From a virus (Duplodnaviria > Heunggongvirae > Uroviricota > Caudoviricetes): DNA of 64,000 nt. Location of the stretch: positions 128,025-192,024 of the IMG/VR virus record IMGVR_UViG_3300031647_000750. One strand, written 5' to 3'. The notes under the pieces were generated by a model, which did no database searches, was not told the origin of the DNA, and saw only the letters and a program-made list of their open reading frames with translations. Shown here one piece after another: positions 8,949 through 61,699 of this stretch. A program made the position numbers and the translations under genes. Numbering within the stretch: position 1 is the stretch's first letter; each line of letters begins with the position of its first letter.

Positions 8949-10382
8949 ATGACAGAAAAGAAATTACCATCAGATACGTTTTGTATTCTACCTTGGATAC
9001 ATTTGAGTACTCGCCCAGACGGCAGTATGAGAGTATGTTGTACAGCAAATGCAAGTAGTGTTGGTGCAACAAATGATAAAGTTCACGGTGGGCGAGTTGG
9101 CATTGTTAAGACAGATGATGGTAAGCCTGCAAACCTAAACAACAGTGACTTGTCTAGTGCATGGAACAATAGTTACATGCGTGGTGTACGTCAACAAATG
9201 CTTGCAGGAGAAAAGCCTGCTAGTTGTTTGAAATGTTACAAAGAAGAAGATGCAGGACATCGATCTAAGCGACAGTGGGAAACCCAGTACTGGATGCGTG
9301 ATGGAATTGATGTTGATGAACTTGTTAAAGAAACATATGAAGACGGTTCAACTGATTCAAAACTACGATACATTGATATCCGTATGGGTACTAAATGCCA
9401 ACTTGGTTGCGTTATGTGTAGTCCACACGATTCATCAGGATGGGTAAAAGATTGGAATAAGTTGTATCCACAGATTACCAATGAGTCACTAAAAGAAACA
9501 ATGTCTTGGGATGATAAAGGCAAGCAGTTTGGTGCTAATTATAACTGGCATAAAAACAACCCACAGTTTTGGGAACAATTTTATGCTCAAATTCCATTCA
9601 TGCGTCAACTATACTTTGCAGGCGGCGAATCGACGGTTATCGAAGAGCATTATGAAATCCTAGATAAAGTTATTGAAATGGGTTATGCATCTCAGATTGA
9701 GTTGCGTTACAACAGTAATGGCATTGAATTGCCTGATCGTCTACTAGAGCAATGGAAGCATTTCCAAAAGGTACGTTTCCATTATAGTATTGACAGTATT
9801 GGTGAAATGAATGATTATATTCGTTACCCAAGTGAATGGTCACATCAACTTGCAATGTTTGAGCGTCTTGATACACAGACTTCTAACAACGTAGAGATTA
9901 CAATCGCGTGTGCAGTTAACGCACTAAACATTCACTACATTCCAGACTTCCTTAAATGGAAACTGCAATCAGACTTGAAGAAGACAAACATGTGGCCCTT
10001 TGGCGCTGGTGGCATTAACTATCACTTTGTATACTGGCCAGGACATTTGAATGTCAAGGTATTGCCAGATGAGTTCTTAGACAAAACCGAAGCGAAGTAT
10101 GAAGAGTTCATTGCATGGTGGAAAGAGAATTGGGAACTAGGTGTTCCAAGTTGGCACAAGGGTAAAGTAGATTATCAGAAATGGGAAGATGCTGAATATG
10201 GCATCAAGCGTTTACGTGGTATGATTAGTTTTGCTCGTAGTGAAGATTGGAGTCAGCGATTACCAGAGTTTAGAGAATACATTAACAAACTAGACGAGAT
10301 GCGCGGCACCGATTTCAGAAAAACATTTGCAGACATGGCTTACTTATTAGACGAGCCTACAGAGGACAATGATAGTGACTGA
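8949..10382 (+). CDS. Radical SAM enzyme, long form (paralog A), with an N-terminal RxCC motif and a central CxxxCxxC motif
   Basis: KCQLGCVMC is a C-x3-C-x2-C motif; FAGGESTV is a GGE motif; the N-terminal LPWIH..DGSMRVCC is shared with paralog B. Confidence 0.7.
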   Translation: MTEKKLPSDTFCILPWIHLSTRPDGSMRVCCTANASSVGATNDKVHGGRVGIVKTDDGKPANLNNSDLSSAWNNSYMRGVRQQMLAGEKPASCLKCYKEEDAGHRSKRQWETQYWMRDGIDVDELVKETYEDGSTDSKLRYIDIRMGTKCQLGCVMCSPHDSSGWVKDWNKLYPQITNESLKETMSWDDKGKQFGANYNWHKNNPQFWEQFYAQIPFMRQLYFAGGESTVIEEHYEILDKVIEMGYASQIELRYNSNGIELPDRLLEQWKHFQKVRFHYSIDSIGEMNDYIRYPSEWSHQLAMFERLDTQTSNNVEITIACAVNALNIHYIPDFLKWKLQSDLKKTNMWPFGAGGINYHFVYWPGHLNVKVLPDEFLDKTEAKYEEFIAWWKENWELGVPSWHKGKVDYQKWEDAEYGIKRLRGMISFARSEDWSQRLPEFREYINKLDEMRGTDFRKTFADMAYLLDEPTEDNDSD

Positions 10383-10923
10383 TGTAATACCAGTATTAAT
10401 TGCGTTAGAAGTGGAATTGCCCTATGAATTACCGACACCATATGTTAAAATAGTAACAGGTGTCGGTAAGATCAAAGCGACAATGGCAGCAATGGAAGCA
10501 GTATTTAAGTACAATCCTCATACCATTATCAATATGGGTACTGCGGGCAGTTTAGATCCTGATTTAGCACTAGGTGTACATGAAGTTAGTACCGTAGGTC
10601 AACGAGATATGGATGCATCGCCTTTAGGTTGGAAAGTAGGACAGACTCCGTTCACTGGTGAATTATGGATAGATCTAAAACTTAGTGGTGTTTCATTGAC
10701 TAGTGGTGATAACTTTGTCACAAGTCAGCCACCATTGAGTAGTACACTGGTTGATATGGAAGCATATGGTATTGCAATGGTATGCAAAAAGTATAAAGTT
10801 ATCTTTGATTGCTATAAGTACGTATCAGACTTTGCAGATGAAGATTCAACTACAGACTGGGAACAGAATTGCTCCGATGGTGCAAATGAATTCATGAAAA
10901 TATTATCAAATCGTAGCGAGTAA
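10369..10923 (+). CDS. 5'-methylthioadenosine/S-adenosylhomocysteine/5'-deoxyadenosine nucleosidase (Pfs/MtnN, PNP_UDP_1 family)
   Basis: TGVGKIKATMAAMEAV...INMGTAGSL and MEAYGIAMVCKKY align with Pfs GIGKVNAA..INTGSAGGL and EMEAAAIAQV. Confidence 0.6.
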   Translation: MIVTDVIPVLIALEVELPYELPTPYVKIVTGVGKIKATMAAMEAVFKYNPHTIINMGTAGSLDPDLALGVHEVSTVGQRDMDASPLGWKVGQTPFTGELWIDLKLSGVSLTSGDNFVTSQPPLSSTLVDMEAYGIAMVCKKYKVIFDCYKYVSDFADEDSTTDWEQNCSDGANEFMKILSNRSE

Positions 10924-10926
10924 ATA

Positions 10927-12492
10927 ATGTTAGATGTTGTCATGTTGGCGTATGGTGAACCAAACGCTGATCAAAATTTCAAAAGAATACAGAAATTAGC
11001 ACCCAATGCGAAGAGGGTAGATAATGTCGTCGGGATTTTAGAGGCACATCAAGCAGCAGCAAAATTGGCAACTACTGATAATTTTTATGTAGTAGATGCT
11101 GACGCGGTGTTATCTGAGCATTTTAATTTCTCATTCACACCTGATATCATTAAAGAATCGTATCCGGGTGTGAATGAATCAAGTTGTGTATTCGTATGGC
11201 AGAGTGTTAATGCAGTCAATGGATTGATTTATGGTTATGGTGGAGTAAAGTTATTCCCTAGACATAAGTTATTGAATGCGAAATCATTTCAGATAGATAT
11301 GACCACAACAATAGATGCACCATTAGTAGTGAAGCAACAAATATCTAATATAACCGAATTCAATACAGATGAATTCAGTACATGGCGCAGTGCATTCCGT
11401 GAGTGTACAAAACTAGCATCTAACCCCACTCCAGATATGGATGATCGATACAGATTAGATGTATGGTGTACTCGTGGAGATAGCAGTGCCCATGGAAAAT
11501 ATGCTATAATGGGTGCTAGACAAGGACGAGAGTTCGGTGCATTTTACAAAAATGATAAGAAAACTCTAGATAAAATAAACGATTTCACTTGGTTAACCAC
11601 TACATTTGACAAGTCATCAGTGCATACAATAGATCAGCATCACCCAATTCATTTATCATGGTTTCATGGACTAGAAGAATATTTTACATTGTCATCCGTA
11701 GAATCATACTATGCAGTATTTATTAAACTAAAGAATGCACTGGTATACGGTGATAACTGGGGCATTCGCGATCTTATTTTAGAAGAAGTAAATATAGGTA
11801 AGAATGAAGACACTGAACTTTATGTTAATGTAATACTTCAATCATTATTAATAGATGATTATGTAATACCAGATCATCAAGTATTGGAATATATTAATCG
11901 CAATATTAATGATAATTTTATATATGGATTGATGAAATTGTCTGACCCATCGCATGGTAATATTGATCTAGTAGATTTTATCACACGTGATTCGATGATA
12001 GGCAAGTCTTGGATGATTGAAGAATTAAGTAAGACAACGTTGGAACCATCTGATGTTGTAATATTGGGTGGTAACATATGCACCCATTCATCTATGTTAA
12101 TTAATAATTATGAAACAATTGAATCTATACTTAGTGTGGATATAGATCATAAGACAACAGAGTATGCTCGTTTGTTAAATCATATAGCAGAATCTGACGA
12201 ATTATTCAGTGCACAAACCAATGATGTATCTGATATAATATGGGATGAATCATCTCTGCCTGATTTATTGATAAACACTAGTTGCGCACATATGGATGAT
12301 ACATGGTTTGACAATATACCAGATACTGATGATACTTTGATAGTAATACAGACAAATGATTTTTCAGATAATATGAACTGCGTTAAAGATCTGTCTACCG
12401 CCATGACTAAATACCAAATGAAAGAAGTATTATTTAGTGGTGAACAAAGCACACAGTTATATAATAGATTTATGATTATAGGAATCAAGTAA
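10927..12492 (+). CDS. Two-domain protein: N-terminal GT-A (family 2-like) glycosyltransferase-like domain fused to a conserved C-terminal Rossmann-like (methyltransferase-like) domain
   Basis: N-terminal VVMLAYGEP...VVDADA (DxD). The C-terminal 150 aa are paralogous to the C-terminus of ORF 33512 (VILGGNICTHS / NTSCAHMDD / RFMIIGIK). Confidence 0.5.
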   Translation: MLDVVMLAYGEPNADQNFKRIQKLAPNAKRVDNVVGILEAHQAAAKLATTDNFYVVDADAVLSEHFNFSFTPDIIKESYPGVNESSCVFVWQSVNAVNGLIYGYGGVKLFPRHKLLNAKSFQIDMTTTIDAPLVVKQQISNITEFNTDEFSTWRSAFRECTKLASNPTPDMDDRYRLDVWCTRGDSSAHGKYAIMGARQGREFGAFYKNDKKTLDKINDFTWLTTTFDKSSVHTIDQHHPIHLSWFHGLEEYFTLSSVESYYAVFIKLKNALVYGDNWGIRDLILEEVNIGKNEDTELYVNVILQSLLIDDYVIPDHQVLEYINRNINDNFIYGLMKLSDPSHGNIDLVDFITRDSMIGKSWMIEELSKTTLEPSDVVILGGNICTHSSMLINNYETIESILSVDIDHKTTEYARLLNHIAESDELFSAQTNDVSDIIWDESSLPDLLINTSCAHMDDTWFDNIPDTDDTLIVIQTNDFSDNMNCVKDLSTAMTKYQMKEVLFSGEQSTQLYNRFMIIGIK

Positions 12493-13805
12493 TGAACGAT
12501 GACGATATAAAGAACAATGACACAGATAATGGGTTTTGCGCACTGCCATTTGTACAATATAGTACATTCAATGGGGGTCGTTATCGATTATGTTGTATGG
12601 CAAAGGAACCTAGTGAACTTATTAATCAAGAAGAACTAGGCATAGATGGAACATGGAATCATGATTACATTCGTAGTGTTCGTGAGCGTATGGCTACGGG
12701 CGAATGGCTACCAGAGTGTATAGAATGTAAAAGATTAGAACGTAACGATATTATAAGTTCTCGTCAATGGGAAAACTATTCATGGAAAGATCAGGTTCCA
12801 GATATTGTAGCATTGGCAAGTGCAAATGATTGGAATATAGAACAGCCTCTACAATTTGATTTTAGATTAGGTAATTTGTGTAATCTACAATGTCAGATGT
12901 GTAACAAAGAAGCATCGCATTTAGTAAGTGTTGAGCGTGCCAATATGATTGCAACAGATTTGGGTCCCAAATCTCCTAACTTAGATAGATATGATTGGGA
13001 CAATAATATTGCTAATAAAAAGAAAGCGATAATTCAGCCTGGCATCGATTGGGATAGTTTTGATAAGATGCTGCCATATGCACAGACGATTAAAATGATT
13101 GGCGGCGAACCAACTGTTGTATCTGATATGTTCAAGTTGCTAGACAGAGCAACTGAATCCGGATACGCAAAAAATATTACATTATCGTTCTACACGAACA
13201 TCACCAATATGCAAGATAGATGGTTGAAGCAATTTAGTCAGTTTAAGCAAGTTGTTGTAAATTGCTCATTAGAGGGCATGGGTGATATGAATGATTATTT
13301 ACGTCCGCCATCGCAGTGGGATTCAGTATGGGAAAATTTTGATAAGTTAGTAAAGTATTCAAATACATCAGAAGGAAAGAACATTCGTGTACGTGTCACT
13401 ACGGTGAATCAAGTAACAAACGCGTTGCATTTGGTTCCATTCTGGAGATTTATGCACGATTATCAACAGACTAATGACCGTACCATCGGCATGAGTACGA
13501 ATCAATTGGTAGAACCTGAATATTACTCAATGGCGCATAGTCCCCAATGGTTGCGTGATGAACAGAAATCACAGATACTAGAATTTTTAGAAGAGATAAA
13601 AGATAGTCCTCATTATGAAGATTATTCACGTCCGTTAATGGAAGCATTGCATTTTGGCGAAGATCCAGAAACCAAGTATGATCGTGGATTTATGAGGGAT
13701 TATGTTCAAGTAACAGAAAACTATGATAAGCATCGCGGACATGATGTGATGTCAGTAGCACCTGAATTTAGCCGAATTAAATCAGATTTAGAACTTGACA
13801 AGTAA
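12492..13805 (+). CDS. Radical SAM enzyme, long form (paralog B)
   Basis: LGNLCNLQCQMC is a C-x3-C-x2-C motif; MIGGEPTV is present; the N-terminal LPFVQY..GGRYRLCC is shared with paralog A. Confidence 0.7.
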   Translation: MNDDDIKNNDTDNGFCALPFVQYSTFNGGRYRLCCMAKEPSELINQEELGIDGTWNHDYIRSVRERMATGEWLPECIECKRLERNDIISSRQWENYSWKDQVPDIVALASANDWNIEQPLQFDFRLGNLCNLQCQMCNKEASHLVSVERANMIATDLGPKSPNLDRYDWDNNIANKKKAIIQPGIDWDSFDKMLPYAQTIKMIGGEPTVVSDMFKLLDRATESGYAKNITLSFYTNITNMQDRWLKQFSQFKQVVVNCSLEGMGDMNDYLRPPSQWDSVWENFDKLVKYSNTSEGKNIRVRVTTVNQVTNALHLVPFWRFMHDYQQTNDRTIGMSTNQLVEPEYYSMAHSPQWLRDEQKSQILEFLEEIKDSPHYEDYSRPLMEALHFGEDPETKYDRGFMRDYVQVTENYDKHRGHDVMSVAPEFSRIKSDLELDK

Positions 13806-13813
13806 GGAAATAA

Positions 13814-14482
13814 ATGACATCAACTAATATGGAATATTTAACTGAGATAGATTTTGCATTAACCACATATTGTCAAGCACGATGTAGAAGTTGTGCTAGA
13901 ACGAATCAACATACTGGTGAAAAAGAAGATTGGTTAGAACTCAAGCATATGAATCTAGATGTGTTTAAACGAACTCTTGCAGCATCTACTAATATAAAGT
14001 ATAATCTAATTGAGTTTTGTGGCGAGTTGGGCGATCCCATGATGCATCCACAAGTTGACAAATTTATAGAAACTGCATTAGAATATGCACCATCAATATT
14101 AATATCAACAAATGGTGCGCTTAGAAATGCAAACTGGTATAAGACGATAGCAGAAAAATACACAGACGATGTCTTTATAAATTGGGCAATTGATGGAGCA
14201 ACACATGACACCAATTGGAAGTATAGAGAAGGTGTTGATTTTAATAAAGCTTTTGAAAATATGAAAACTCACACTCAATCAGGTGGGGATGGTGAATGGC
14301 GATATTTAATATTTGAGTGGAATTGGCATGAAATACCGCTAGCACGTCAAATGGCAAAAGAGATTGGAATTAAAATTATTTTTTGCTTCAATAATAGAGA
14401 TTTTGGATTAATAACACCAGATTCTAGATTGGATGCAGAAAAATTATTAATAGGAGTGAGTCCAGATGACATCAAAGGGTAA
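13814..14482 (+). CDS. Radical SAM enzyme, short form (paralog C), N-terminal catalytic part only
   Basis: TTYCQARCRSC is a C-x3-C-x2-C motif and EFCGELGDPMMHP is present. The product ends where paralogs D and E continue into a (W/Y)PCC domain. Confidence 0.6.
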   Translation: MTSTNMEYLTEIDFALTTYCQARCRSCARTNQHTGEKEDWLELKHMNLDVFKRTLAASTNIKYNLIEFCGELGDPMMHPQVDKFIETALEYAPSILISTNGALRNANWYKTIAEKYTDDVFINWAIDGATHDTNWKYREGVDFNKAFENMKTHTQSGGDGEWRYLIFEWNWHEIPLARQMAKEIGIKIIFCFNNRDFGLITPDSRLDAEKLLIGVSPDDIKG

Positions 14483-16238: not shown

Positions 16239-16312
16239 GCTCGGTTAGCTCAAAGGTAGAGCCATCGCTCGATAAGCGATAGACGAAGGATCGTTACCTT
16301 CACTGAGTACCA
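16239..16312 (+). tRNA. tRNA, anticodon GAT (Ile) with atypical C33 and atypical T-loop ATCGTTA
   Basis: Hand-folded cloverleaf: acceptor GCTCGGT/ACTGAGT with G-U pairs, D-stem GCTC/GAGC, anticodon stem ATCGC/GCGAT, encoded CCA. A -10 TATAAT lies immediately upstream. Confidence 0.45.
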
Positions 16313-16359
16313 TTTTAAAATTGGAGATTCACTGCCATAAGTGTGAACTATAAAATTAC

Positions 16360-16436
16360 GGATTGTTAGCATAGTGGCTTAATGCAGCACCTTCATACGG
16401 TGAAGATCAATGGTTCAAATCCATTACAATCCACCA
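16360..16436 (+). tRNA. tRNA-Met (CAT)
   Basis: Acceptor GGATTGT/ACAATCC, D-stem GCAT/ATGC, anticodon loop TTCATAC, T-arm AATGG-TTCAAAT-CCATT, CCA encoded. Confidence 0.7.
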
Positions 16437-16444
16437 CAAGTTTT

Positions 16445-16520
16445 ACAGGGTATAGCTGAGTTTGGTTTAGCACGGGCCTTGGATGCCTGAGACGAGGGTT
16501 CAAGTCCTTCTTCCCTGACC
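16445..16520 (+). tRNA. tRNA-Pro (TGG)
   Basis: Anticodon stem CGGGC/GCCTG with loop CTTGGAT; T-arm GAGGG-TTCAAGT-CCTTC; acceptor with one mismatch; CCA encoded; D-arm irregular. Confidence 0.5.
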
Positions 16521-16574
16521 ATTAGAGATAGTGTATATCTCGTGTCTTTTATTAGATATAAAAATACAATTTAA

Positions 16575-16648
16575 TACTCTTGCCAGTGGAACTGGCAGTT
16601 GGGTTTCGACCCCGACTTGCGAATGTTCGATTCATTCCAGGAGTGCCA
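16575..16648 (+). tRNA. tRNA, probable anticodon TCG (Arg)
   Basis: Acceptor ACTCTTG/CAGGAGT; T-arm GAATG-TTCGATT-CATTC; anticodon loop TTTCGAC; D region atypical. Confidence 0.4.
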
Positions 16649-16794
16649 AATTTACTATGCTGGCTGCCGTCTACGTTTCCGGAAACTGACGTTAAATATT
16701 GAGGTTCAACTCCTCGGATACATTAAGGAAGGCTTGGTGTATCGCGTTACAGGCAACGTAAGGGTTCGACTCCCAAATAGTAAACCGCTTTGAT

Positions 16795-16872
16795 GGTGAT
16801 CGTAGCATAACTGGCAAATGCCCAAGGTTGTGAACCTTGTAGATCCGGGATCATACCCCGGCGATCACACCA
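16795..16872 (+). tRNA. tRNA-His (GTG) with extra G at -1
   Basis: G-1 plus acceptor GTGATCG/CGATCAC; D-stem GCAT/ATGC; anticodon stem CAAGG/CCTTG with loop TTGTGAA; T-stem CCGGG/CCCGG with atypical loop ATCATAC; CCA encoded. Confidence 0.65.
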
Positions 16873-16882
16873 CTTATTTTAT

Positions 16883-16968
16883 GGAAGATGATCTAGTCTG
16901 GGACTAGGATGACTTGCTAAGTCAATCGGCTCGAAAGGGTTTGGGATCGTAACCTACTTCTTCCGCCA
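16883..16968 (+). tRNA. Class II tRNA, probable Ser (GCT)
   Basis: Acceptor GGAAGAT/TTCTTCC; D-stem CTAG/CTAG; anticodon loop TTGCTAA; 86-nt length with a long variable region; CCA encoded. Confidence 0.45.
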
Positions 16969-16974
16969 CTTTTA

Positions 16975-17051
16975 GCGCGGTTGCCAGAGTAGCCAACGGA
17001 GCGGCTTGCAAACCCGTACAACCATCGGTGCAAATCCGATACCGCGCTCCA
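16975..17051 (+). tRNA. tRNA (possibly Cys, GCA); anticodon arm not confidently folded
   Basis: Perfect acceptor GCGCGGT/ACCGCGC; T-arm ATCGG-TGCAAAT-CCGAT; CCA encoded. Confidence 0.45.
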
Positions 17052-17099
17052 ATTTTAAGTTCCGTTCGTCTATCGGTTAGGACATACGGGAAGAATTAC

Positions 17100-17176
17100 A
17101 TCCCCATAGATTACGTTGGTTAAATCACTAGACTTTCACTCTAGCGAACCGGGATCGTCGCCCGGTGGGGATACCA
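17100..17176 (+). tRNA. tRNA-Glu (TTC)
   Basis: Perfect acceptor ATCCCCA/TGGGGAT; D-stem GATT/AATC; anticodon stem CTAGA/TCTAG with loop CTTTCAC; T-stem CCGGG/CCCGG with atypical loop ATCGTCG; CCA encoded. Confidence 0.7.
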
Positions 17177-17181
17177 TTTTT

Positions 17182-17280
17182 GTCTTATAGTTTAATATGG
17201 CATTTGGGTATGACGATACTCAAGAATAGAATCTTGCAATCAGCGAGAGATACAGGTATTGCATAATCCTGTTAAGACAA
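17182..17280 (+). ncRNA. tRNA-like element (~99 nt) with perfect 7-bp terminal pairing TGTCTTA/TAAGACA and stem ACAGG/CCTGT; interior not canonical
   Basis: Terminal helices seen; no CCA. Confidence 0.2.
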
Positions 17281-17292
17281 ATTATTTTTAAT

Positions 17293-17367
17293 GCATCGGT
17301 AGTGTCAATGGAAACACGCGAGATTCCAAACTTCGTATTCTAGGTTCAAGTCCTAGTCGGTGTGCCA
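17293..17367 (+). tRNA. tRNA-Trp (CCA)
   Basis: T-arm CTAGG-TTCAAGT-CCTAG; anticodon loop TTCCAAA; D-stem GTGT/ACAC; acceptor pairs partly through G-U; CCA encoded. Confidence 0.55.
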
Positions 17368-17479
17368 CATTAAGGTAGTTAAGCAGTTGAGAACCATATC
17401 GTGAAACCTACGGGGGAGTTGGTATTGGAACAAATAGTTCGCTGCTCAAGAGGGTGTTGACCTCTACTGCCACCCTTTT

Positions 17480-17578
17480 TATCTTGTTGCTTAATTAAAG
17501 CAGTGGAATCCCTCATACATCGTCAATGCTATGAGAATGATGTTTCCATGCATGTAGGTGCAAATCCTACCAAGATAA
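17480..17578 (+). ncRNA. tRNA-like element (~99 nt) with acceptor-like TATCTTG/CAAGATA and canonical T-arm GTAGG-TGCAAAT-CCTAC but a long unresolved interior (possible intron or long variable arm)
   Basis: Terminal helix and T-arm seen; interior not folded. Confidence 0.25.
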
Positions 17579-17589
17579 ATTATTTTTAA

Positions 17590-17675
17590 GCAGGATACGA
17601 CTCATGGTGAGACAGCGGATTGTAAATCCGTAGCGTGTAATGCGCAAGTAGGTTCAATTCCTTCATCCTGCACCA
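17590..17675 (+). tRNA. tRNA-Tyr (GTA), class II
   Basis: Perfect acceptor GCAGGAT/ATCCTGC; anticodon stem GCGGA/TCCGT with loop TTGTAAA; variable stem-loop; CCA encoded. Confidence 0.6.
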
Positions 17676-17682
17676 CTTTTAA

Positions 17683-17760
17683 GCCGCAGTGACCCAAATA
17701 GGTAGAGGTGCTGGTTTTAGAAACCAGATGTTGTAGGTTCGATCCCTACTTGCGGTACCA
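17683..17760 (+). tRNA. tRNA with anticodon TAG (would read CUA, Leu) but short (class I-like) variable region
   Basis: Anticodon stem CTGGT/ACCAG with loop TTTAGAA; T-arm GTAGG-TTCGATC-CCTAC; acceptor GCCGCAG/TTGCGGT with terminal G-U pairs; CCA encoded. Confidence 0.45.
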
Positions 17761-17795
17761 ACATAAATACAACCATATATAGGAGAAACCATATA

Positions 17796-18119
17796 ATGGC
17801 AATTACATTATCTAAAGAAGCATCAGAGCGCATATCAGATTACATGATCAACAGAGGACCTACGTACGGTGTACGTGTAGGTGTAAGAACAACAGGTTGT
17901 TCTGGTCTTGCATACATAGTAGAGTTTGTCGATAATATTGACGAGAATGATACAGTCTTTGTATCAAATGAAATAAGTATTGTAGTAGATCCTAAAGGTT
18001 TAACATACCTTGACGGTACTGAGTTGGATTATGGACGTGATGGACTCAACGAAGGATTCAGATTTAATAATCCAAACGCAAAAGACGAATGCGGTTGTGG
18101 CGAAAGTTTCACTGTATAA
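17796..18119 (+). CDS. A-type Fe-S cluster carrier (IscA/ErpA/HesB family)
   Basis: 107 aa with the conserved Cys triad (C..GCSG ... C-G-C-G C-terminal motif ECGCGESF). Confidence 0.75.
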   Translation: MAITLSKEASERISDYMINRGPTYGVRVGVRTTGCSGLAYIVEFVDNIDENDTVFVSNEISIVVDPKGLTYLDGTELDYGRDGLNEGFRFNNPNAKDECGCGESFTV

Positions 18120-18137
18120 TATTTTATTAAATAAGTG

Positions 18138-18166
18138 TTGACAAGAGAAGTATAATGCGTTACAAT
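18138..18166 (+). promoter_or_regulatory. Promoter ATAAGTGTTGACAAG-17-TACAAT
   Basis: Third copy of the extended -35 family. Confidence 0.5.
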
Positions 18167-18277
18167 AGCACAACGTTTTGAGAAAGACATAAAGTTTTTT
18201 GATAAATAAATAAGAAGTTTATGCTGACGTATTTCAAGTCACTAATTTAGAAATAGTTTAAAATAGTTTAAAATAGT

Positions 18278-18310
18278 AGTTGACAATAGTTAATAAGTTT
18301 GATATAATAG
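18278..18310 (+). promoter_or_regulatory. Promoter TAGTTGACAATAG-N-GATATAAT driving small-RNA candidate 1
   Basis: Consensus hexamers; similar to the promoter at 18465. Confidence 0.45.
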
Positions 18311-18314
18311 TAGA

Positions 18315-18450
18315 ACAAGTTGAGAGATCAACACGCTCTTTAAAAATAGTTTGTTTTAATATGTATTATTGTTGATGAAAGTAGGGCTTGATGTTGGAAG
18401 TAGAACCATTAAGGTGTCTGACGATAGTTAACAATAATATATTTTAAAAT
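18315..18450 (+). ncRNA. Candidate small RNA 1 (diverged member of a repeat family). It ends in ...GACGATAGTTAAC followed by A/T-rich sequence.
   Basis: No ORF; follows a promoter; shares 3' motif CGATAGTTAA and an internal GGAAGTAG..AAGG core with units at 18556 and 18715. Confidence 0.3.
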
Positions 18451-18464
18451 GAATTAAAATAGTT

Positions 18465-18498
18465 ATTGACATTGTTATGAAACTTTGTTATACTATTA
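18465..18498 (+). promoter_or_regulatory. Promoter TTATTGACATTG-N-TTATACT driving small-RNA candidates 2a and 2b
   Basis: Consensus-like -35 and -10. Confidence 0.45.
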
Positions 18499-18555
18499 AA
18501 GTGTTCTTTTGTATACACATTAGGTAGATACTGATTTTAGTAGGTATGGTGATTC

Positions 18556-18646
18556 GTGCTGAACGTTGAAGGGAATCGCTAAATGACAAGGGACTTGCTG
18601 TGTGGGATTAATCATCCCTGTCGTAGACAAGCGGTTGTTAAATAAT
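18556..18646 (+). ncRNA. Candidate structured small RNA 2a (core GTGCTGAACGTTGAAGGGAATCGCTAAATGACAAGGG...GGGATTAATCATCCC hairpin)
   Basis: Non-coding; near-duplicate of 18715-18812 with compensatory-looking changes. Confidence 0.35.
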
Positions 18647-18714
18647 GTGTATGCAAAAGTGTATTTTAATATATGCTATTGGGTAGAGCCAGATCGTAGT
18701 AAGCATAAGGGTGC

Positions 18715-18812
18715 GTGCTGAAATTTGAAGGGAATCGCTGAACGACAATAGGTTTAATGTATACAGACTAATCCCTGTATATTGGAACCAACGATAGTTA
18801 AACGATAGTATA
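18715..18812 (+). ncRNA. Candidate structured small RNA 2b (core GTGCTGAAATTTGAAGGGAATCGCTGAACGACAATAGG...)
   Basis: Paralog of 18556-18646; ends CGATAGTTAAACGATAG plus A/T-rich sequence. Confidence 0.35.
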
Positions 18813-18842
18813 TTTTAAAGTTTATTTTAAATAAAGTTTAAT

Positions 18843-18918
18843 TCCTGAATAGCTCAGTTGGTAGAGCAGTAGACTGTTAATCTATTTGTCGTTGGTTCGA
18901 GCCCAACTTCAGGAGCCA
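18843..18918 (+). tRNA. tRNA-Asn (GTT)
   Basis: Canonical cloverleaf: acceptor TCCTGAA/TTCAGGA, D-stem GCTC/GAGC, anticodon loop CTGTTAA, T-arm GTTGG-TTCGAGC-CCAAC, CCA. Confidence 0.85.
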
Positions 18919-19018
18919 TTTTCATAGTTAGTTTATTCCTTCTTACAGGATATCCTGAGAAGATACGAAGAAAACTGATAGCATCACATCTGAAACAATG
19001 ACGATGTGGTGCGGTTGC

Positions 19019-19092
19019 GCCCGATTAGTTAAGTGGTATAACAATTGCCTTGTAAGCATTAGTTGGTGGTTCGATTCCATCATTGGGCACCA
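19019..19092 (+). tRNA. tRNA-Thr (TGT)
   Basis: Acceptor GCCCGAT/ATTGGGC; D-stem GTTA/TAAC; anticodon loop CTTGTAA; T-loop TTCGATT; CCA. Confidence 0.7.
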
Positions 19093-19235
19093 TTTTTTAA
19101 AGTAGTATTAAGTAGTTACCCTAGCGGCTCATAAGAGAGAGTCGGTTCATTGCATATAGTTACAGTTATGTGTAGTCAGCGAAATGTGCATCTGTAAGTG
19201 CATGTAGACTCGGCTAACTTCTTAATATTATTTTT

Positions 19236-19311
19236 GCTGACGTAGCTCACTCGGGAGAGCGCGACCCTGTCAAGGTCGAGGTAGTGGGATCGAAACCCAT
19301 CGTTGGCGCCA
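19236..19311 (+). tRNA. tRNA-Asp (GTC)
   Basis: D-stem GCTC/GAGC; anticodon stem CGACC/GGTCG with loop CTGTCAA; T-stem GTGGG/CCCAT with loop ATCGAAA; CCA. Confidence 0.8.
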
Positions 19312-19357
19312 CATTTAAGATCAAATTTCTTGACCAGAAGTTTGAAACAACGTTTTA

Positions 19358-19448
19358 TAGAGAGTTGGCAGAGTGGTCGAATGCACTGGTCTTGAAAACC
19401 AGCAAGGGTTCATAGCCCTTCGAGAGTTCGAACCTCTCACTCTCTGCC
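19358..19448 (+). tRNA. tRNA-Ser (TGA), class II
   Basis: Perfect acceptor AGAGAGT/ACTCTCT; 3-bp D-stem; anticodon stem CTGGT/ACCAG with loop CTTGAAA; variable hairpin AAGGG/CCCTT; T-arm GAGAG-TTCGAAC-CTCTC; CCA. Confidence 0.85.
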
Positions 19449-19516
19449 ATTTTAGATAGTGCTAAATAGATAGTTCGTCAGATGATGTAACTATTTTATA
19501 GGAATAAACCATGTAT

Positions 19517-19591
19517 AATATAATTTGTCCCATTAGCATAATGGATAGTGCAGTGGATTTCTACTCCATAGATCAGGGTTCGACTCCTTGA
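19517..19591 (+). tRNA. tRNA-Arg (TCT)
   Basis: Perfect acceptor GTCCCAT/ATGGGAC; anticodon loop TTTCTAC; T-arm CAGGG-TTCGACT-CCTTG; CCA; -10 TATAAT upstream. Confidence 0.8.
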
Positions 19592-19711
19592 TGGGACACC
19601 AATTTTAAAGAGCGTACAGTATCATCGCTTGTCAAGTAGATACTCAGGTAACATCAGGCATAGCCCCTCATGATGTTATTAGGTGAGGGGGTGAGACAAG
19701 CACATTTTTAT

Positions 19712-19781
19712 ATCATCATTTGCCAATTGGTAAGGTTAGGCGAAGTAGTCGTTACTGGTTCGATTCCAGTTGGTGATACCA
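19712..19781 (+). ncRNA. tRNA-like element (70 nt) with a good acceptor and T-arm (ACTGG-TTCGATT-CCAGT) and CCA but a compressed, unresolved D/anticodon region
   Basis: Partial fold only. Confidence 0.3.
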
Positions 19782-19789
19782 ATTTTAAT

Positions 19790-19861
19790 GCGGGATGCTA
19801 AGGTATGCACTCCGGGCTCATAACCCGCGAGGTTGAGTTTCGATTACTCTTTCCGCTACCA
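19790..19861 (+). ncRNA. tRNA-like element with a CAT anticodon loop (CTCATAA) but an imperfect acceptor and T-stem
   Basis: Anticodon hairpin CCGGG/CCCGC is recognisable; other arms weak. Confidence 0.3.
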
Positions 19862-19866
19862 CATTA

Positions 19867-19944
19867 GGGCCTATAGCTTAGTTGGTTTAAAGCAGACGAC
19901 TCATAATCGTAAGATCCTTGGTTCAAGTCCAAGTAGGCCCACCA
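19867..19944 (+). tRNA. tRNA with CAT anticodon (elongator Met or Ile2-lysidine type)
   Basis: Perfect acceptor GGGCCTA/TAGGCCC; D-stem GCTT/AAGC; anticodon loop CTCATAA; T-arm CTTGG-TTCAAGT-CCAAG; CCA. Confidence 0.8.
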
Positions 19945-20081
19945 CTATAATTTATTTTTGTATAAGATTTGTCTTATACATTTACAGAAATCGCTTCTGT
20001 TATCGTGACATACAACGACAACGATAGCGTTACACTCGTAACAAATACATGTTAATTATGCGAGTTGACGATAACAGAGGC

Positions 20082-20156
20082 GGCGCTATTCGCGAGTATC
20101 GTATAATGGTTATTACGGGAGGTTTCCAACCTTTTGATGTCAGTTCGATTCTGACT
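20082..20156 (+). tRNA. tRNA-Gly (TCC)
   Basis: Perfect acceptor GCGAGTA/TACTCGC; anticodon loop TTTCCAA; T-arm GTCAG-TTCGATT-CTGAC; CCA. Confidence 0.85.
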
Positions 20157-20178
20157 ACTCGCTCCAATATGTAAGAAG

Positions 20179-20264
20179 TAAAGAACATGCCTTGGTGGTG
20201 GAATTAGGTATACACATCAGATTTAAAATCTGACGACTTCGGTCATGCGGGTTCAAGTCCCGCT
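20179..20264 (+). tRNA. tRNA-Leu (TAA), class II
   Basis: Anticodon stem TCAGA/TCTGA with loop TTTAAAA; variable hairpin GAC-TTCG-GTC; T-arm GCGGG-TTCAAGT-CCCGC; CCA. Confidence 0.85.
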
Positions 20265-20296
20265 CAAGGCACCAAAATTAAAATAGAAGATGTAAT

Positions 20297-21028
20297 ATGA
20301 ATAGTTTGTTTGAATACACAGAAGCAGTAGAAGAGTGCAAAGGTTCGTTAGAAGGTGATGGTGATAATAAGTTATTTACCGAAGCAGAGCGTGTTCTATC
20401 TACTGAAATAAACAACGAAGAAAAGATATTAAAGCATCCGATATTACATGAAGCGTTTGATCGCATCGTAGAGCAACATGTACCAAATCAATCAACTGCA
20501 TTTTTATCATTATGCACTGCTACTCGTCCTTATAACAAGAGCAAGAAGTGGAAAGGATTCATCAACAAGTTTGGTGGTAAGGTAGATATGATAGTTGTAT
20601 CTAATGGTGGTATGATGCCACAACAGTTTTGGAAAAGTTGGCCCTATTTGAATTACGATGGGGGTGATCATTATGATGTTAAAATGTATCAAGATATTAT
20701 GCATGAACGATTATTGAAGTTTTTTAGGAAGCACAATTACAGTAATGTTATTGCAAACTTTAGACCTAATTTAATCAATCATCAACCAGCACATGATGCG
20801 CTTTCTATTCTGAAAGAAGAAGGTAGCATTGGTGATTATATTGTAATGCCTAATCAGGAGTTGTATGATAAGGCACAGTCATTAGGTTGGCGACCACCAC
20901 AAGGTCAAGGTGATATGTTCCCTGATTTAACCAATACGATACTGAGTGCATTAACTGCTCAAGTGGAAGAATTCGGGTATGATGAAGATTTATTTACTGT
21001 TCATGAAAAATTAAAGTACAATAAGTAG
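20297..21028 (+). CDS. Hypothetical protein
   Basis: ORF; start immediately downstream of the tRNA cluster. Confidence 0.45.
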   Translation: MNSLFEYTEAVEECKGSLEGDGDNKLFTEAERVLSTEINNEEKILKHPILHEAFDRIVEQHVPNQSTAFLSLCTATRPYNKSKKWKGFINKFGGKVDMIVVSNGGMMPQQFWKSWPYLNYDGGDHYDVKMYQDIMHERLLKFFRKHNYSNVIANFRPNLINHQPAHDALSILKEEGSIGDYIVMPNQELYDKAQSLGWRPPQGQGDMFPDLTNTILSALTAQVEEFGYDEDLFTVHEKLKYNK

Positions 21029-21073
21029 GTTATTTTTATAGTATAAATAATACTATAGACAGGGAGAAAGATA

Positions 21074-21748
21074 TTGTTCAAGGGAATATATAATCTTTTT
21101 AAGCAGAAAGAAGAGCCTATAGCAGAGATGATTGAAATCCCTGTTAAAAACCCAGAATTACCTCATATTGTGTTTATACACGGTGCTGGATGTAGTCATC
21201 GCAGTTGGAATTATATATTAGCAAAACTTAACCCTACCCGTTACACTATGTTAGAGTATTCGGTAGATGATAAGTTTTATACTAATCTAAATAAACTGTC
21301 GACTATTGTTGGTCAAATACATGATAGGGATTTATTTATAATATCTCATTCTATGGGTGGTATATATGCATTGCATTTATGTCAGAGTTTTAGTCATAGA
21401 GTAATTGGTTCAATATCTATCGCGACTCCGTTTGCGGGATCGAGAACAGCAGATTTTGTAAAATATGTATATCCATCGTATATATTGTTTCGAGATGTTG
21501 GAGTAAGAAGTGCGCCTATTATGAGGTGTCATGATATTACAATCAATGTACCTTGGACACAGATAGTTACGACAGATGGGCATGTACCGTGGCATAAGGG
21601 TGAGAACGATGGTGTTGTGACGGTAGAAAGTCAGCGTCATCGTAAAGATATAGATTATGTAGAAATACATGTAACCCACCATGAAGCGTTGGTGAGTGAT
21701 GAAGCATTAGATATTATAAAAGAAAAATTAGATATCAAAAACGCTTGA
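21074..21748 (+). CDS. Alpha/beta-hydrolase fold protein (GxSxG: SHSMGG)
   Basis: HGAG..SW oxyanion-type motif plus nucleophile elbow ISHSMGGIYALHL. TTG start after RBS GGGAGAAAG; an alternative ATG exists at 21128. Confidence 0.5.
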   Translation: MFKGIYNLFKQKEEPIAEMIEIPVKNPELPHIVFIHGAGCSHRSWNYILAKLNPTRYTMLEYSVDDKFYTNLNKLSTIVGQIHDRDLFIISHSMGGIYALHLCQSFSHRVIGSISIATPFAGSRTADFVKYVYPSYILFRDVGVRSAPIMRCHDITINVPWTQIVTTDGHVPWHKGENDGVVTVESQRHRKDIDYVEIHVTHHEALVSDEALDIIKEKLDIKNA

Positions 21749-21822
21749 CAGAACACGTTACATAGTGTATAATAATTTATTAGATAAATAAAGTAGTAAG
21801 TATGAAGTGGTTACATAATCGT

Positions 21823-21898
21823 GGGGATATAGCTCAGTTGGGAGAGCGACTGCCTTGCACGCAGTAGGTCGTAGGTTCGATCCCTATTATCTCCACCA
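21823..21898 (+). tRNA. tRNA-Ala (TGC), copy 1
   Basis: GGGGATATAGCTCAGTTGGGAGAGC...CTTGCAC...GGTTCGATCC...TATCTCCACCA canonical. Confidence 0.9.
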
Positions 21899-21947
21899 TT
21901 ATGTGACTATTAGTCTAATAAATAAAGTAGCAAGTATGAAGTACAAT

Positions 21948-22023
21948 GGGGATATAGCTCAGTTGGGAGAGCGACTGCCTTGCACGCAGTAGGTCGTAGG
22001 TTCGATCCCTATTATCTCCACCA
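21948..22023 (+). tRNA. tRNA-Ala (TGC), copy 2, identical to copy 1 and part of a ~120-bp segmental duplication
   Basis: Identical sequence; the upstream flank AAATAAAGTAG(T/C)AAGTATGAAGT is also duplicated. Confidence 0.9.
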
Positions 22024-22058
22024 TTTTAAAATTAAAGAGATATCAAATTTCTTTAAAA

Positions 22059-22134
<76 letters not shown>

Positions 22135-22142
22135 AATAATCA

Positions 22143-22210: not shown

Positions 22211-23236
22211 ATGTATGACATTAAAACAATAGAATTGGAATTAGCAACTGTGTGCAATGCATATTGTCCCGTATGTATTCGCTATGATGCAAGAGACGAA
22301 GGTTTATTTTTAAACCCCAAAGCCAATCTTAATCAATTGATAGATCTAGATACTATCGACAAATGTTTTAAATCAGACAAAATACCCGATGACGTAGAAG
22401 TGAGTCTAGTTGGTACTTCTGGCGATCCACTTGCTCATCCTAAAATTTTAGATATTATCAAATTGATATTACATCATAAGTCGCATGCAACATTTAATAT
22501 CCATACTAATGGTGGACTTAGATCAACAAAATTATTCGCTGAACTTGCACATATATTAGGAGATGGCGATAGGTTTTGTTTTAGTTTAGATGGGTTAGCA
22601 GATACCAACCATATATATCGAATAGGGGTTGACTTCAAGAAAGTAATATCTAATATGACTGCATTCATTGAAGCGGGCGGCACACCAATTTGGCAATTTG
22701 TGATATTTGATTGGAACAAACATCAGATAGAAGAATGTAGAAAATATGCATTTGATTTAGGCTGTAGAGCATTTGAGTCTCGCGAAAATGTCAATCCCGG
22801 GCTTATAGATGTCGCCATCGCATCTGCAAATAAGCAGATAGTTAATGCTGTATCTCCATCGTTTTATTCTGATAGTATGGTCGAGTCTGATGATTATGAT
22901 TACATAGACGATGCGTGTATTCAAGAACAAGGAATATTCATGGCACCAGATGGTAAAGTATATCCTTGTTGTATGTTCTATGCGGAACGTGCGGGTCCAG
23001 GTTCTACATTGGTGTACGATACCATGTATAAGAAGTTTGGATATGATTGGAATGATTTAACTATATATTCACTAGATCAGATTCTAGATCATGCTTGGTG
23101 GGATGAACTACATACCAGCATAGTTAAAAGTCCATGTGTTACATGCATCAATAACTGTGGTGCTGTTCGTGATGAACGTAGTAATTCTGACATAAACGAA
23201 AAGGCATATCAAAATATTTCAAGGACATTAATATGA
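22211..23236 (+). CDS. Radical SAM enzyme, short form (paralog D), with a C-terminal YPCC domain
   Basis: ATVCNAYCPVC is a C-x3-C-x2-C motif; LVGTSGDPLAHP is present; C-terminal DGKVYPCCMFY plus CVTCINNC. Confidence 0.7.
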   Translation: MYDIKTIELELATVCNAYCPVCIRYDARDEGLFLNPKANLNQLIDLDTIDKCFKSDKIPDDVEVSLVGTSGDPLAHPKILDIIKLILHHKSHATFNIHTNGGLRSTKLFAELAHILGDGDRFCFSLDGLADTNHIYRIGVDFKKVISNMTAFIEAGGTPIWQFVIFDWNKHQIEECRKYAFDLGCRAFESRENVNPGLIDVAIASANKQIVNAVSPSFYSDSMVESDDYDYIDDACIQEQGIFMAPDGKVYPCCMFYAERAGPGSTLVYDTMYKKFGYDWNDLTIYSLDQILDHAWWDELHTSIVKSPCVTCINNCGAVRDERSNSDINEKAYQNISRTLI

Positions 23237-36355: not shown

Positions 36356-37420
36356 ATGAACGCAGTTAACGCTTGGACAGAGTTTCAACCATTGAAGAAA
36401 GTAGTATTGGGTGCACCATTCCCAGAAACTGCATTTGATTGGCACGAAGATGAAGAGACACGAGACACTATGCGACAAATCTTCCGTGAAACAGCCGAAG
36501 ATATTGAAGTATTAGCACAACTATTAGAAGCACGTGGAATTGAAGTGGTACGTCCCAAGAACATCTTTACAATCACTGGTGAAGAACAGATTCAATTACC
36601 GTGGGCTCATTGTGCGTTTCCGAACCATCCATTAATGCCGCGCGATACGTTGATGCCATATGGTCATTCAATTTTTGAATGCTTTACAGGCGGTGACAAT
36701 CGTTACTTTGAAAACCTAGCATACTATGATCACGTAGTAGAATGGTTTAAACAAGGTGCTGATTGGATTTCAATGCCTGGCTGCATGGTAGAAACTGGTA
36801 AAGGATATGATGAATACGTAGCAGAGCAGCGTGTACTGTATCATGCTGCAAATATGATCAAGTGTGGTGATACTATCTTATTCAGTCAACCATACGAAGG
36901 TGACAACAAGCGTGGACGTGGTACGAATTTGGGCAAGGAATGGATGCAAAGAGAAATCAAACAGCGTTATCCTGATACTAAATTTATTGATATTCCAATT
37001 GGTGGTCACATAGATGGTAAGATTGCATTATTGAAGCCGGGTGTTCTTATGACGTGGAACAAAGCATGGGTCCCAGAAGAATTCAAGAATTGGACAATCA
37101 TTGAAGTAGAAGATGATTTTGACATGCCAGCAGATTTTCAAAATACACGTAAGCGTAGATACTATAAAGAGTATGTACAGAAGTGGTTAAGTCATTGGGT
37201 AGGTTATGCAGACGAGTCTGTATTTGATGTTAATGTATTATCATTGGATGAAAAGACGGTAATCTGTACAGGTAAAAACGATGCAGCATTTGCTGAAATG
37301 GAAGCAAACGGAATTGAACCAATTGTTTGGCGATTCCGTCATCAGTATTTTTGGGATGGTGGTATCCATTGCTTGACTAGTGATATCGTACGTGAAGGTA
37401 ATTGTGAGAATTATTTATGA
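36356..37420 (+). CDS. Amidinotransferase-fold (pentein superfamily) enzyme, agmatine/arginine deiminase-like
   Basis: C-terminal WDGGIHCLTSD matches the catalytic-Cys signature GG(N/G)IHC(I/M)T of agmatine and peptidylarginine deiminases; upstream Asp/His-rich segments. Confidence 0.45.
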   Translation: MNAVNAWTEFQPLKKVVLGAPFPETAFDWHEDEETRDTMRQIFRETAEDIEVLAQLLEARGIEVVRPKNIFTITGEEQIQLPWAHCAFPNHPLMPRDTLMPYGHSIFECFTGGDNRYFENLAYYDHVVEWFKQGADWISMPGCMVETGKGYDEYVAEQRVLYHAANMIKCGDTILFSQPYEGDNKRGRGTNLGKEWMQREIKQRYPDTKFIDIPIGGHIDGKIALLKPGVLMTWNKAWVPEEFKNWTIIEVEDDFDMPADFQNTRKRRYYKEYVQKWLSHWVGYADESVFDVNVLSLDEKTVICTGKNDAAFAEMEANGIEPIVWRFRHQYFWDGGIHCLTSDIVREGNCENYL

Positions 37421-61580: not shown

Positions 61581-61699
61581 TTTAATATAGGCATATGCTA
61601 CGTGACACTAGTATATCATAATAACAAATGTGGTGGTTGGTCACTTTAAGATAAGTGGTCGACGATTCACAAAATTCGCAGTTACTAATGGAGATTAAA

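Follow-up and report, generated by a model that had tools for sequence, protein, structure and literature searches.

What kind of RNA, if any, is made from the non-coding stretch that separates an IscA-type gene from tRNA-Asn within the tRNA cluster of an uncultured marine phage? The sequence analysed here is a 64-kb window from the genome of this phage (positions 128,025 to 192,024 of the IMG/VR record IMGVR_UViG_3300031647_000750; hereafter the window), which is A+T-rich, with about 36% G+C. Its tRNA cluster (16239-22134), in which 18 tRNAs were called by ARAGORN, is interrupted by the IscA-type gene (17796-18119). Behind this gene, a first-pass annotation had described a non-coding stretch of about 600 bp with a promoter-driven family of paired small RNAs, in three related units, reminiscent of those in the T4 tRNA region. 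The stretch is real but longer, being 723 nt from the end of IscA at 18119 to the start of tRNA-Asn at 18843, and no credible open reading frame (ORF) was found in 18120-18842. Instead of a pair of distinct small RNA genes, it contains three tandem paralogs of one RNA family, U1, U2 and U3; the junction motifs are gone from U2 and a whole arm from U1, and most relatives carry the family as a single copy. The RNA is about 165 nt long and, judging from the alignments, is predicted to fold as a three-way junction.

The three related units were recovered as tandem homologs with nhmmer and with a covariance model, R1, which was built from eight relatives with the window sequences excluded. When R1 was run over the whole window, U3 scored highest, followed by U2 and U1 (Table 1), and nothing else in the 64 kb scored above 12.8 bits, leaving a single locus. 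The boundaries originally assigned to two of the units (18556-18646 and 18715-18812) were too small, as the alignment of U2 with U3 spans about 165 nt and each is bounded by a long-range helix. The repeated core by which they had been recognised was found as described, with GTGCTGAAnnTTGAAGGGAATCGCTnAAnGACAA at 18556-18589 and 18715-18748 and the 15-mer TTGAAGGGAATCGCT exactly twice in the window. Two other shared features were only partly retained. The hairpin GGGATTAATC(AT)CCCTGT, which had been attributed to both near-duplicates, is literally present in U2 (18604-18618), but the stem in U3 is different (18759-18766/18775-18782) and carries a related loop, ACTAATCC. The common end CGATAGTTAA, which had been attributed to all three units, is present in U1 (18422-18431) and U3 (18793-18802), but has diverged to GCGGTTGTTAAA in U2.

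The architecture of the RNA was derived from an alignment of eight single-copy relatives and then of 12-14 distinct copies. The ends of the unit are paired by a closing helix, P1, whose 16-23 bp are interrupted by a conserved mismatch (helices are called P1 to P5 throughout, and promoters are always named as promoters). From 5' to 3', the order is P1, GGGUAG, P2, the P3 hairpin with its loop L3, GAAAC, CGACAAUAGG, the P4-P5 arm with its loop L5, GACGAUAG and the 3' strand of P1, which starts with CAGUAUGU. The G and U residues of GGGUAG pair with ACGCU, forming P2a, and the first arm, P2a-P2-P3, ends in L3, GGUGAUUC. In the second arm, P4-P5, the stem varies greatly and the loop L5, AyUwAAUCAC (AUUAAUCAC), is conserved. 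The junction strings GGGUAG, CGACAAUAGG and GACGAUAG are nearly invariant across otherwise divergent members. Loops L3 and L5 are complementary (GUGAUU/AAUCAC) and could form a kissing helix of 5-6 bp, the positions of which are 91-97% paired. A compensatory change to GUGGUU/GACCAC was found in this contact in L069, a more divergent relative, and the sixth L3-L5 pair, adjacent to the five scored pairs, is A-U in L082 and G-U in L080b.

The suggestion that substitutions between the copies preserve pairing was borne out by the covariation counts in two alignments, mainly through the relatives. In the model-fitted alignment of 12 distinct sequences, 82.1% of pair cells were paired compared with 66.0% in shuffles, 36 pairs had changed on both sides compared with 23.2 expected, and the covariation score was 0.464 compared with 0.185; controls with slid partners were 34-43% paired. 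The MAFFT alignment of eight sequences, which was not fitted to the structure, gave 80.2% against 69.6% paired, 23 pairs against 14.6 changed on both sides and a covariation score of 0.334 against 0.164, with slid controls at 32-43%. For every measure and in both alignments, the observed value was reached by 0 of 500 shuffles. The compensatory changes lie in five helices and in the loop-loop contact. Minimum-free-energy folds of single sequences gave P1, P2, P3 and P5, with z values of -4.1 (L073), -2.3 (L056) and -2.5 (U3), and the fold of U3 gave P1, P3, P4 and P5. Little was obtained with RNAalifold on two copies, and early folds of U1, U2 and U3 with narrower boundaries had z values of 0 to -1.8; these early folds were uninformative because the closing helices had been cut off. 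The helix cells contain 75 G-U or U-G combinations and 10 A-C or C-A combinations, and R1 scored far higher on the plus strand than on the minus strand (47.7 and 5.7 bits for U2, 138 and 24 bits for L073). The fold therefore belongs to the transcript of the plus strand, which is also the strand of all sizeable ORFs in the window.

A conserved small ORF at this site, which had been named as a finding that would overturn the RNA interpretation, was excluded by indels of 1-2 nt, the lack of codon periodicity and an interrupted minus-strand frame. One such gene could encode, on the minus strand, a hydrophobic peptide of the type I toxin kind, starting MSFSDSLQ (18589-18488 and 18748-18638). There are indeed two minus-strand ORFs with TTG starts, of 33 and 36 aa, that share these first eight residues, and in several relatives the minus strand is free of stops across the unit. 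However, neither ORF has a Shine-Dalgarno sequence, the frame read from the conserved junction string has only 2-10 codons in L056, L080b, L080a and L069, and no homologous minus-strand frame is open in L056, L080b or L073. Homologs differ by indels of 1-2 nt and by substitutions spread evenly over the three codon phases, and the remaining genes of the window are all on the plus strand. A small protein gene was rejected on these frame, indel and substitution tests and is, in our judgement, extremely improbable.

The three copies are preserved to different degrees. In U3, P1 is formed by 18664-18679/18805-18820 with an additional pair G18681-C18803, P2a by 18682-18687/18735-18739, and P3 by 18702-18706/18715-18719, which enclose the loop AAGGGTGC. 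The junction CGACAATAGG follows at 18743-18752, then the P4/P5 arm (18751-18789) with L5, ACTAATCC, at 18767-18774, and the junction AACGATAG at 18790-18797 and again at 18801-18808. Read from the sequence, L3 of U3 (AAGGGUGC) can still make four pairs (GGGU/AUCC) with its own L5 (ACUAAUCC). U2 has a closing helix of 17 bp (18506-18522/18643-18659), a P3 hairpin at 18543-18560 with L3, GGTGATTC, at 18548-18555, and a P5 hairpin at 18604-18618 with the loop ATTAATCAT; it has kept P1, P3/L3 and L5, while its junction motifs are mutated to TGACAAGGG and GCGGTTG (UGACAAGGG and GCGGUUG in the RNA). For U1, the sequence and the fold indicate a closing helix of 20 bp with one U-U mismatch (18354-18373/18430-18449). 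The 3' junction motif GACGATAG (18420-18427) and part of the second arm are kept, and 56 positions of the P2-P3 arm are deleted in its alignment to the model. The closing helices of the three copies differ in sequence and have kept their pairing. Since U3 retains the motifs and arms of which U1 and U2 have each lost some, the window probably has one functional copy, U3, and two that are decaying.

Each group of units stands behind its own promoter. Both of the consensus-like promoters that had been described are real, and a third, promoter P1, had been overlooked (Table 1). Promoters P1, P2 and P3 are three of the best sigma-70 matches within the 7.5 kb scanned and have an A/T-rich upstream sequence in common (repeat family D5). 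Promoter P2 is kept in L051-L068, promoter P3 is invariant in L052, L054, L055 and L059, and the -10 element of promoter P3 ends 7 nt upstream of U2. Upstream of promoter P2 (18251-18277) there is a repeat of the 10-bp unit AAATAGTTTA, of which the window has one copy more than L049 and L051. Between promoter and closing helix, a leader motif, CACGCTCTTT(A/G)A(A/T)AAT, was found in the window (18333-18347), before unit L080a (L080:2104-2118), and in L074 and L069.

Table 1. Coordinates of the promoters, RNA units and neighbouring genes in the 64-kb window.
Feature	Position	Strand	Description
Promoter P1	18138..18166	+	TTGACA-17-TACAAT, 11/12; directly after the IscA stop codon
Promoter P2	18280..18308	+	TTGACA-17-TATAAT, 12/12, TG before the -10; drives U1
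Leader after promoter P2	18319..18347	+	Hairpin GTTGA-GAGA-TCAAC (18319-18332), then motif CACGCTCTTTAAAAAT
U1	18352..18457	+	Truncated copy; 19.5 bits (E 0.012); P2-P3 arm missing
Promoter P3	18466..18494	+	TTGACA-17-TATACT, 11/12, with TG; drives U2-U3-tRNA-Asn
U2	18502..18659	+	Degenerate copy; 47.7 bits (E 3e-09)
U3	18660..18828	+	Most complete copy; 84.1 bits (E 9e-18); both junction strings and both arms kept
tRNA-Asn (GTT)	18843..18918	+	Starts 14 nt past U3; 5' end is the expected RNase P site
Fe-S toolkit and other noted genes	8949-14482, 17796-18119, 22211-23236, 37417-38475, 61655-62914	+	Pfam/PHROGs scans

No terminator-like site was found in 18100-18900. The units are therefore part of the 5' leader of the tRNA operon and not free-standing genes, as no terminator intervenes before tRNA-Asn, and the operon would consist of several kb of untranslated RNA, with the first terminator-like site at 22142. 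The same arrangement was found in the relatives. Among 12 loci used for promoter context (non-divergent, with downstream copies of tandem arrays excluded), a promoter matching the consensus at 11-12 of 12 positions ends 7-58 nt upstream of the unit in ten, L073 and L074 being the exceptions. In 11 of the 19 tabulated units, the next tRNA lies 2-14 nt downstream (tRNA-Asn in nine, tRNA-Ser in two). Unit L080a (L080:2134-2301) precedes an ORF of 57 aa and not a tRNA; its 3' end is then partly repeated (L080:2340-2385), directly before the start codon of this ORF.

This constant position could mean that the RNA acts in cis, the folded nascent strand remaining with the transcribing polymerase or acting on it or on the transcript, for example as a put-like processive antiterminator, as an anti-Rho device, or as a 5' structure that protects the precursor or organises its processing. 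The unit usually lies just past a consensus promoter and upstream of whatever follows, whether tRNA-Asn, tRNA-Ser or the ORF in L080a, its orientation is strictly that of the operon, and it is followed by a long untranslated operon with no terminator immediately behind the unit. On the other hand, put RNAs are about 70 nt long with two hairpins, whereas the phage leader, at about 165 nt, is a three-way junction whose loops can kiss. Its occurrence in tandem and the sequestering of both ends in the closing helix look more like a released, self-contained RNA, and in the stretches seen of L051 and L076, which are without the element, nothing evidently compensates for its absence. We therefore regard a role in cis as a serious alternative, though a rather unlikely one.

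The exact IscA protein is present on many marine metagenome contigs, and an IscA variant encoded next to the RNA is listed for 287 blocks of the indexed assembly collection, TARA samples among them. Most of the contigs (L046-L050) match the window exactly over this region. Up to 18333, L051 shares about 98% identity with the window; it lacks exactly 18334-18827 and then runs straight into tRNA-Asn; the leader motif of the window sits at this deletion breakpoint (18333/18334). A motif scan of JGI metagenomes yielded four contigs, L052-L055, with 83-93% identity, three of them with the full array, and in L053 U2 and U3 are fused into a single unit. In a sister lineage (L052, L054, L055 and L059), the U2 core is TTGTTGAACGTTGTATGAAATCGCT (also written GTATGAAATCGCT) and U3 carries a segment that is found in U2 of the window. 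As the U2 core of the sister lineage is different, the exact identity of the U2 and U3 cores in the window is partly the result of recent gene conversion. In L054, the U3 hairpin has been swapped for an unrelated hairpin in the same place.

Further away, in L056-L068 and L080-L082, where the IscA variants are 86-91% identical, a single unit lies just past a consensus promoter, with a tRNA 2-5 nt downstream, and this unit is 100% identical in L056 and L063 despite differing promoter regions and IscA proteins. A three-block pattern detected more divergent single-copy members in IMG/VR (L069, L073 and L074) as well as, in L070-L072 and L075, a variant that has diverged strongly and lies between tRNA-Glu and tRNA-Asn. 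This variant (L070:5759-5914, minus strand; also L071, L072 and L075) is from a higher-G+C phage and scores only 15 bits with R1. It has the pair GACAAUAGG..GACGAUAG twice in tandem with no hairpin between, and its first arm is a T-arm-like hairpin, GGUGGUUCAAUUCCACC, which is present in no other variant. No copy was found in the stretches fetched for L076 and L089-L091. The absence from these loci and from L051, together with the fusion in L053, indicates that the element is dispensable and variable in dosage. In these searches, the family is known only from uncultured marine phage contigs, where it is often duplicated, converted, degraded or lost.

Such a pattern also raises the question of whether the repeats are debris or an element acting at the DNA level, such as a recombination hotspot, an insertion resembling a miniature inverted-repeat transposable element (MITE) or an origin-like A/T-rich repeat, in which the structure would be incidental. 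Close strains do show a rearrangement hotspot, with presence or absence of the element, the U2-U3 fusion, an indel in the 10-bp repeat, a tRNA stub and, nearby, an insertion of the GIY-YIG-like type; decay is plain to see in U1 and U2, and the arms of P1 resemble terminal inverted repeats. However, this would not account for compensatory changes in the helices and in the loop-loop contact, nor for the excess of G-U over A-C (75 to 10), which fits an RNA of one strand only, nor for a unit that stays identical between L056 and L063 while its flanks differ. A MITE-like element is further opposed by the single locus in the window and by the strict pattern search described below, which gave no true match in species genomes. 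The debris or DNA-element explanation is thus disfavoured, and we consider it quite improbable.

No known RNA family was matched. At the gathering score, the window yielded only tRNAs (Rfam 15, 4227 models), so the proposed comparison with Rfam did not name the units, and at E <= 10 the region 18100-18860 gave only two chance matches of 10.6-14.6 bits. For the canonical units of L073, L074 and L056, nothing in Rfam overlapped the unit, including YrlA, riboswitches, ribozymes, GOLLD and ROOL. The 15-mer TTGAAGGGAATCGCT, which had been put forward as a probe for other phage genomes, had 44 matches in IMG/VR, all at chance level and none extending past about 20 nt. By megablast and blastn, neither the region nor 16 kb of its flank had a nucleotide match among 50,697 deposited phage records, and in blastn of the canonical units only the tRNA-Asn part matched, or nothing. 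The strict pattern CGACAATAG..ACGATAG..CAGTAT had two matches, both by chance, in a set with one genome for each of 185,579 bacterial and archaeal species, and in IMG/VR it returned the known members and two chance matches (the chance set overall being L084-L087); these scans revealed no dispersed copies. In a search of the window, complements of the junction strings and further GACRATAG sites occurred at chance frequency.

A decayed tRNA or tRNA mimic was considered and rejected, as neither ARAGORN nor the Rfam model RF00005 found a cloverleaf or a T-arm with acceptor module; the likeness of L5 (ACUAAUC) to the anticodon arm of tRNA-Asn was too weak to use. The family is a new one within a known class, the structured RNAs of phage tRNA regions, though it may already figure among the roughly 10,000 candidate structured RNAs of a published viral catalogue (PMC10690425).

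The fold itself invites another explanation, in which the RNA senses a ligand or is catalytic, as a riboswitch aptamer or a self-cleaving ribozyme, with the junction as its pocket or active site. A closing helix and two arms joined by a loop-loop contact are the design principle of purine riboswitches and natural hammerheads, and CGACAAUAGG and GACGAUAG vary little or not at all among otherwise divergent members. In its design principle only, the topology resembles the "tuning fork" of the purine riboswitch, which also has two roughly parallel arms with pairing terminal loops above P1 and its most conserved nucleotides in the junction. The phage leader RNA, by contrast, is over twice as long, it lies upstream of tRNAs and not of metabolic genes, and no riboswitch or ribozyme family was matched in Rfam, even at E <= 10. 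It has no expression platform, as the tRNA begins 2-14 nt past P1, with neither a terminator nor a ribosome-binding site that it could regulate, and a P1 of 16-23 bp would be far too stable for switching. A ligand-sensing or catalytic role is accordingly improbable in our view, although we would place it above the debris explanation.

The resemblance to rnaC and rnaD of T4 that had been pointed out holds for the context, as both are on the tRNA strand in a tRNA cluster, and not for homology, which was found neither by model, nor by fold, nor by blastn. The T4 RNAs are likewise small, non-coding, adjacent to tRNAs (rnaD is 1 nt from tRNA-Arg) and without a terminator of their own, and their function, as the species 1 and 2 stable RNAs, is not known (PMC3014915, PMC9697503). 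R1 gave no match to rnaC and rnaD (L088:2909-3172), and its best score in the T4 region, at most 12.4 bits, was elsewhere. In addition, rnaC has a tRNA-like T-arm, CCGGGUUCGAAUCCCGG, while the phage leader RNA has none, and the T4 RNAs are located at the distal end of the cluster whereas the leader RNA is promoter-proximal.

With put of phage HK022, the leader RNA shares a promoter-proximal, orientation-specific structure at the start of a long operon, and differs from it in size, in fold, in its tandem copies and in having no terminators immediately downstream. GOLLD and ROOL, which come from phages and prophages, often adjoin tRNA genes. These large, ornate RNA structures (bioRxiv 10.1101/2024.12.08.627333) are similar to the leader RNA in being phage-borne, with a complex, tertiary-looking structure and no known function, but they are about 580-800 nt long and included in Rfam, and neither was found in the window or in the canonical units. 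YrlA, which like the leader RNA can be phage-encoded, also has a long helix that pairs its 5' and 3' ends around a structured module, but the leader RNA is without the tRNA-like module of T-arm or D-arm. The YrlA model had no match overlapping any unit, only weak ones at L073:158-276 (25.8 bits; gathering score 69) and L074:128-233 (23.2 bits), and no Ro/TROVE protein was present among the scanned ORFs. The match in L073 is about 220 nt upstream of the unit and may be a tRNA-like element.

The explanation that we favour, tentatively and at a little less than an even chance, is that processing of the tRNA precursor sets free a stable RNA, which acts in trans through a partner bound at the conserved junction. 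The host RNA polymerase would start at promoter P2 or P3 and transcribe the unit or units, tRNA-Asn and the following tRNAs as a single precursor. A cut by RNase P at the 5' end of the tRNA, possibly with a cut by RNase III in P1, would then free the folded RNA; the 5' end of tRNA-Asn would be expected to set the 3' end of the leader RNA, and a P1 of 16-23 bp is a plausible substrate for RNase III. RNase P frees leaders at the 5' ends of tRNAs, and paired 3' ends resist exonucleases. With both ends buried in P1, the RNA could persist as a stable species, and stability is favoured because its 3' end would be paired in this helix. It would act in trans through a protein or small ligand bound at the junction, and tandem duplication would raise its dose. 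As the RNA is wired into the tRNA operon, its maturation by the tRNA-processing enzymes of the host would come at no extra cost.

Several points weigh against the released, trans-acting RNA. The discrete stable transcript is at present a prediction. The covariation comes from about 12-14 distinct sequences, of which several are paralogs or close relatives, and the model had been used to fit one of the two alignments. The L056 and L080b types have no P4, and L080b forms P3 imperfectly. In Pfam and PHROGs scans of about 45 ORFs in the window, no obvious RNA-binding or RNA-processing protein was found. The constant site behind a promoter, including that of L080a before an ORF, fits a role in cis equally well. 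Lastly, what appears to be amplification of dose may be duplication followed by decay, since two of the three copies in the window are degenerate.

The surrounding tRNA cluster shows further rearrangements. Beyond the ARAGORN calls, the Rfam tRNA model also matches 17590-17672 (36 bits), and 3' halves resembling a T-arm and acceptor are found in repeat families at 16763-16794, 16941-16975, 17024-17058 and 19757-19788; relatives carry tRNA-Tyr, tRNA-Gln, tRNA-Cys and tRNA-Lys at positions comparable to those of the extra tRNA-like elements in the window. A 5' stub of a tRNA-Asp gene is present at 18170-18236 (GCTGACGTA at 18223-18231). As the interval from IscA to the promoter holds tRNA-Val, tRNA-Asp and a gene for glutaredoxin in relatives such as L056, the window has a deletion at this point. 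An exact duplication comprises a tRNA-Ala (TGC) gene and the 25-nt block upstream of it (blocks at 21784-21808 and 21918-21942; whole region 21784-22030), and it follows a further promoter with a 12/12 consensus match at 21745. In L046-L048, which are otherwise identical, there is an extra ORF of 214 aa between tRNA-Met and tRNA-Gly (L046:7444-8088; window 20091/20189) that matches GIY-YIG weakly (22.0 bits, where the cut-off is 22.6), which recalls the homing endonuclease SegB of the T4 tRNA cluster.

The other genes of the window include an Fe-S toolkit, made up of IscA, a cysteine-desulfurase-like class-V aminotransferase, at least six ORFs of the radical-SAM type and a DUF5591 protein. ClpP, ClpX, SbmA/BacA, PRPP synthetase, dCMP deaminase, an HNH endonuclease and a gp44-like clamp loader are also present. 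Homologs of IscA at about 65% identity were found in bacterial isc operons and not in phages.

The known members of the family are few and the phage is uncultured. Leaders of this kind evolve fast, by tandem duplication, gene conversion, decay and loss. Kissing-loop RNAs with invariant junction cores have often proved to be riboswitches, ribozymes or specific protein-binding RNAs. It is possible, although we hold this with less confidence than release and action in trans, that the units represent a new class of tertiary-structured RNA of an abundant marine phage group, matured by the tRNA machinery and with a specific activity, such as the binding and redirection of a host protein or RNA polymerase, the sensing of a metabolite or a decoy against host defence. 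The family is a second, unrelated RNA family in the tRNA-region niche known from T4, and with a fold that is clear and open to testing it gives a new handle on the roles of RNAs in phage tRNA clusters.

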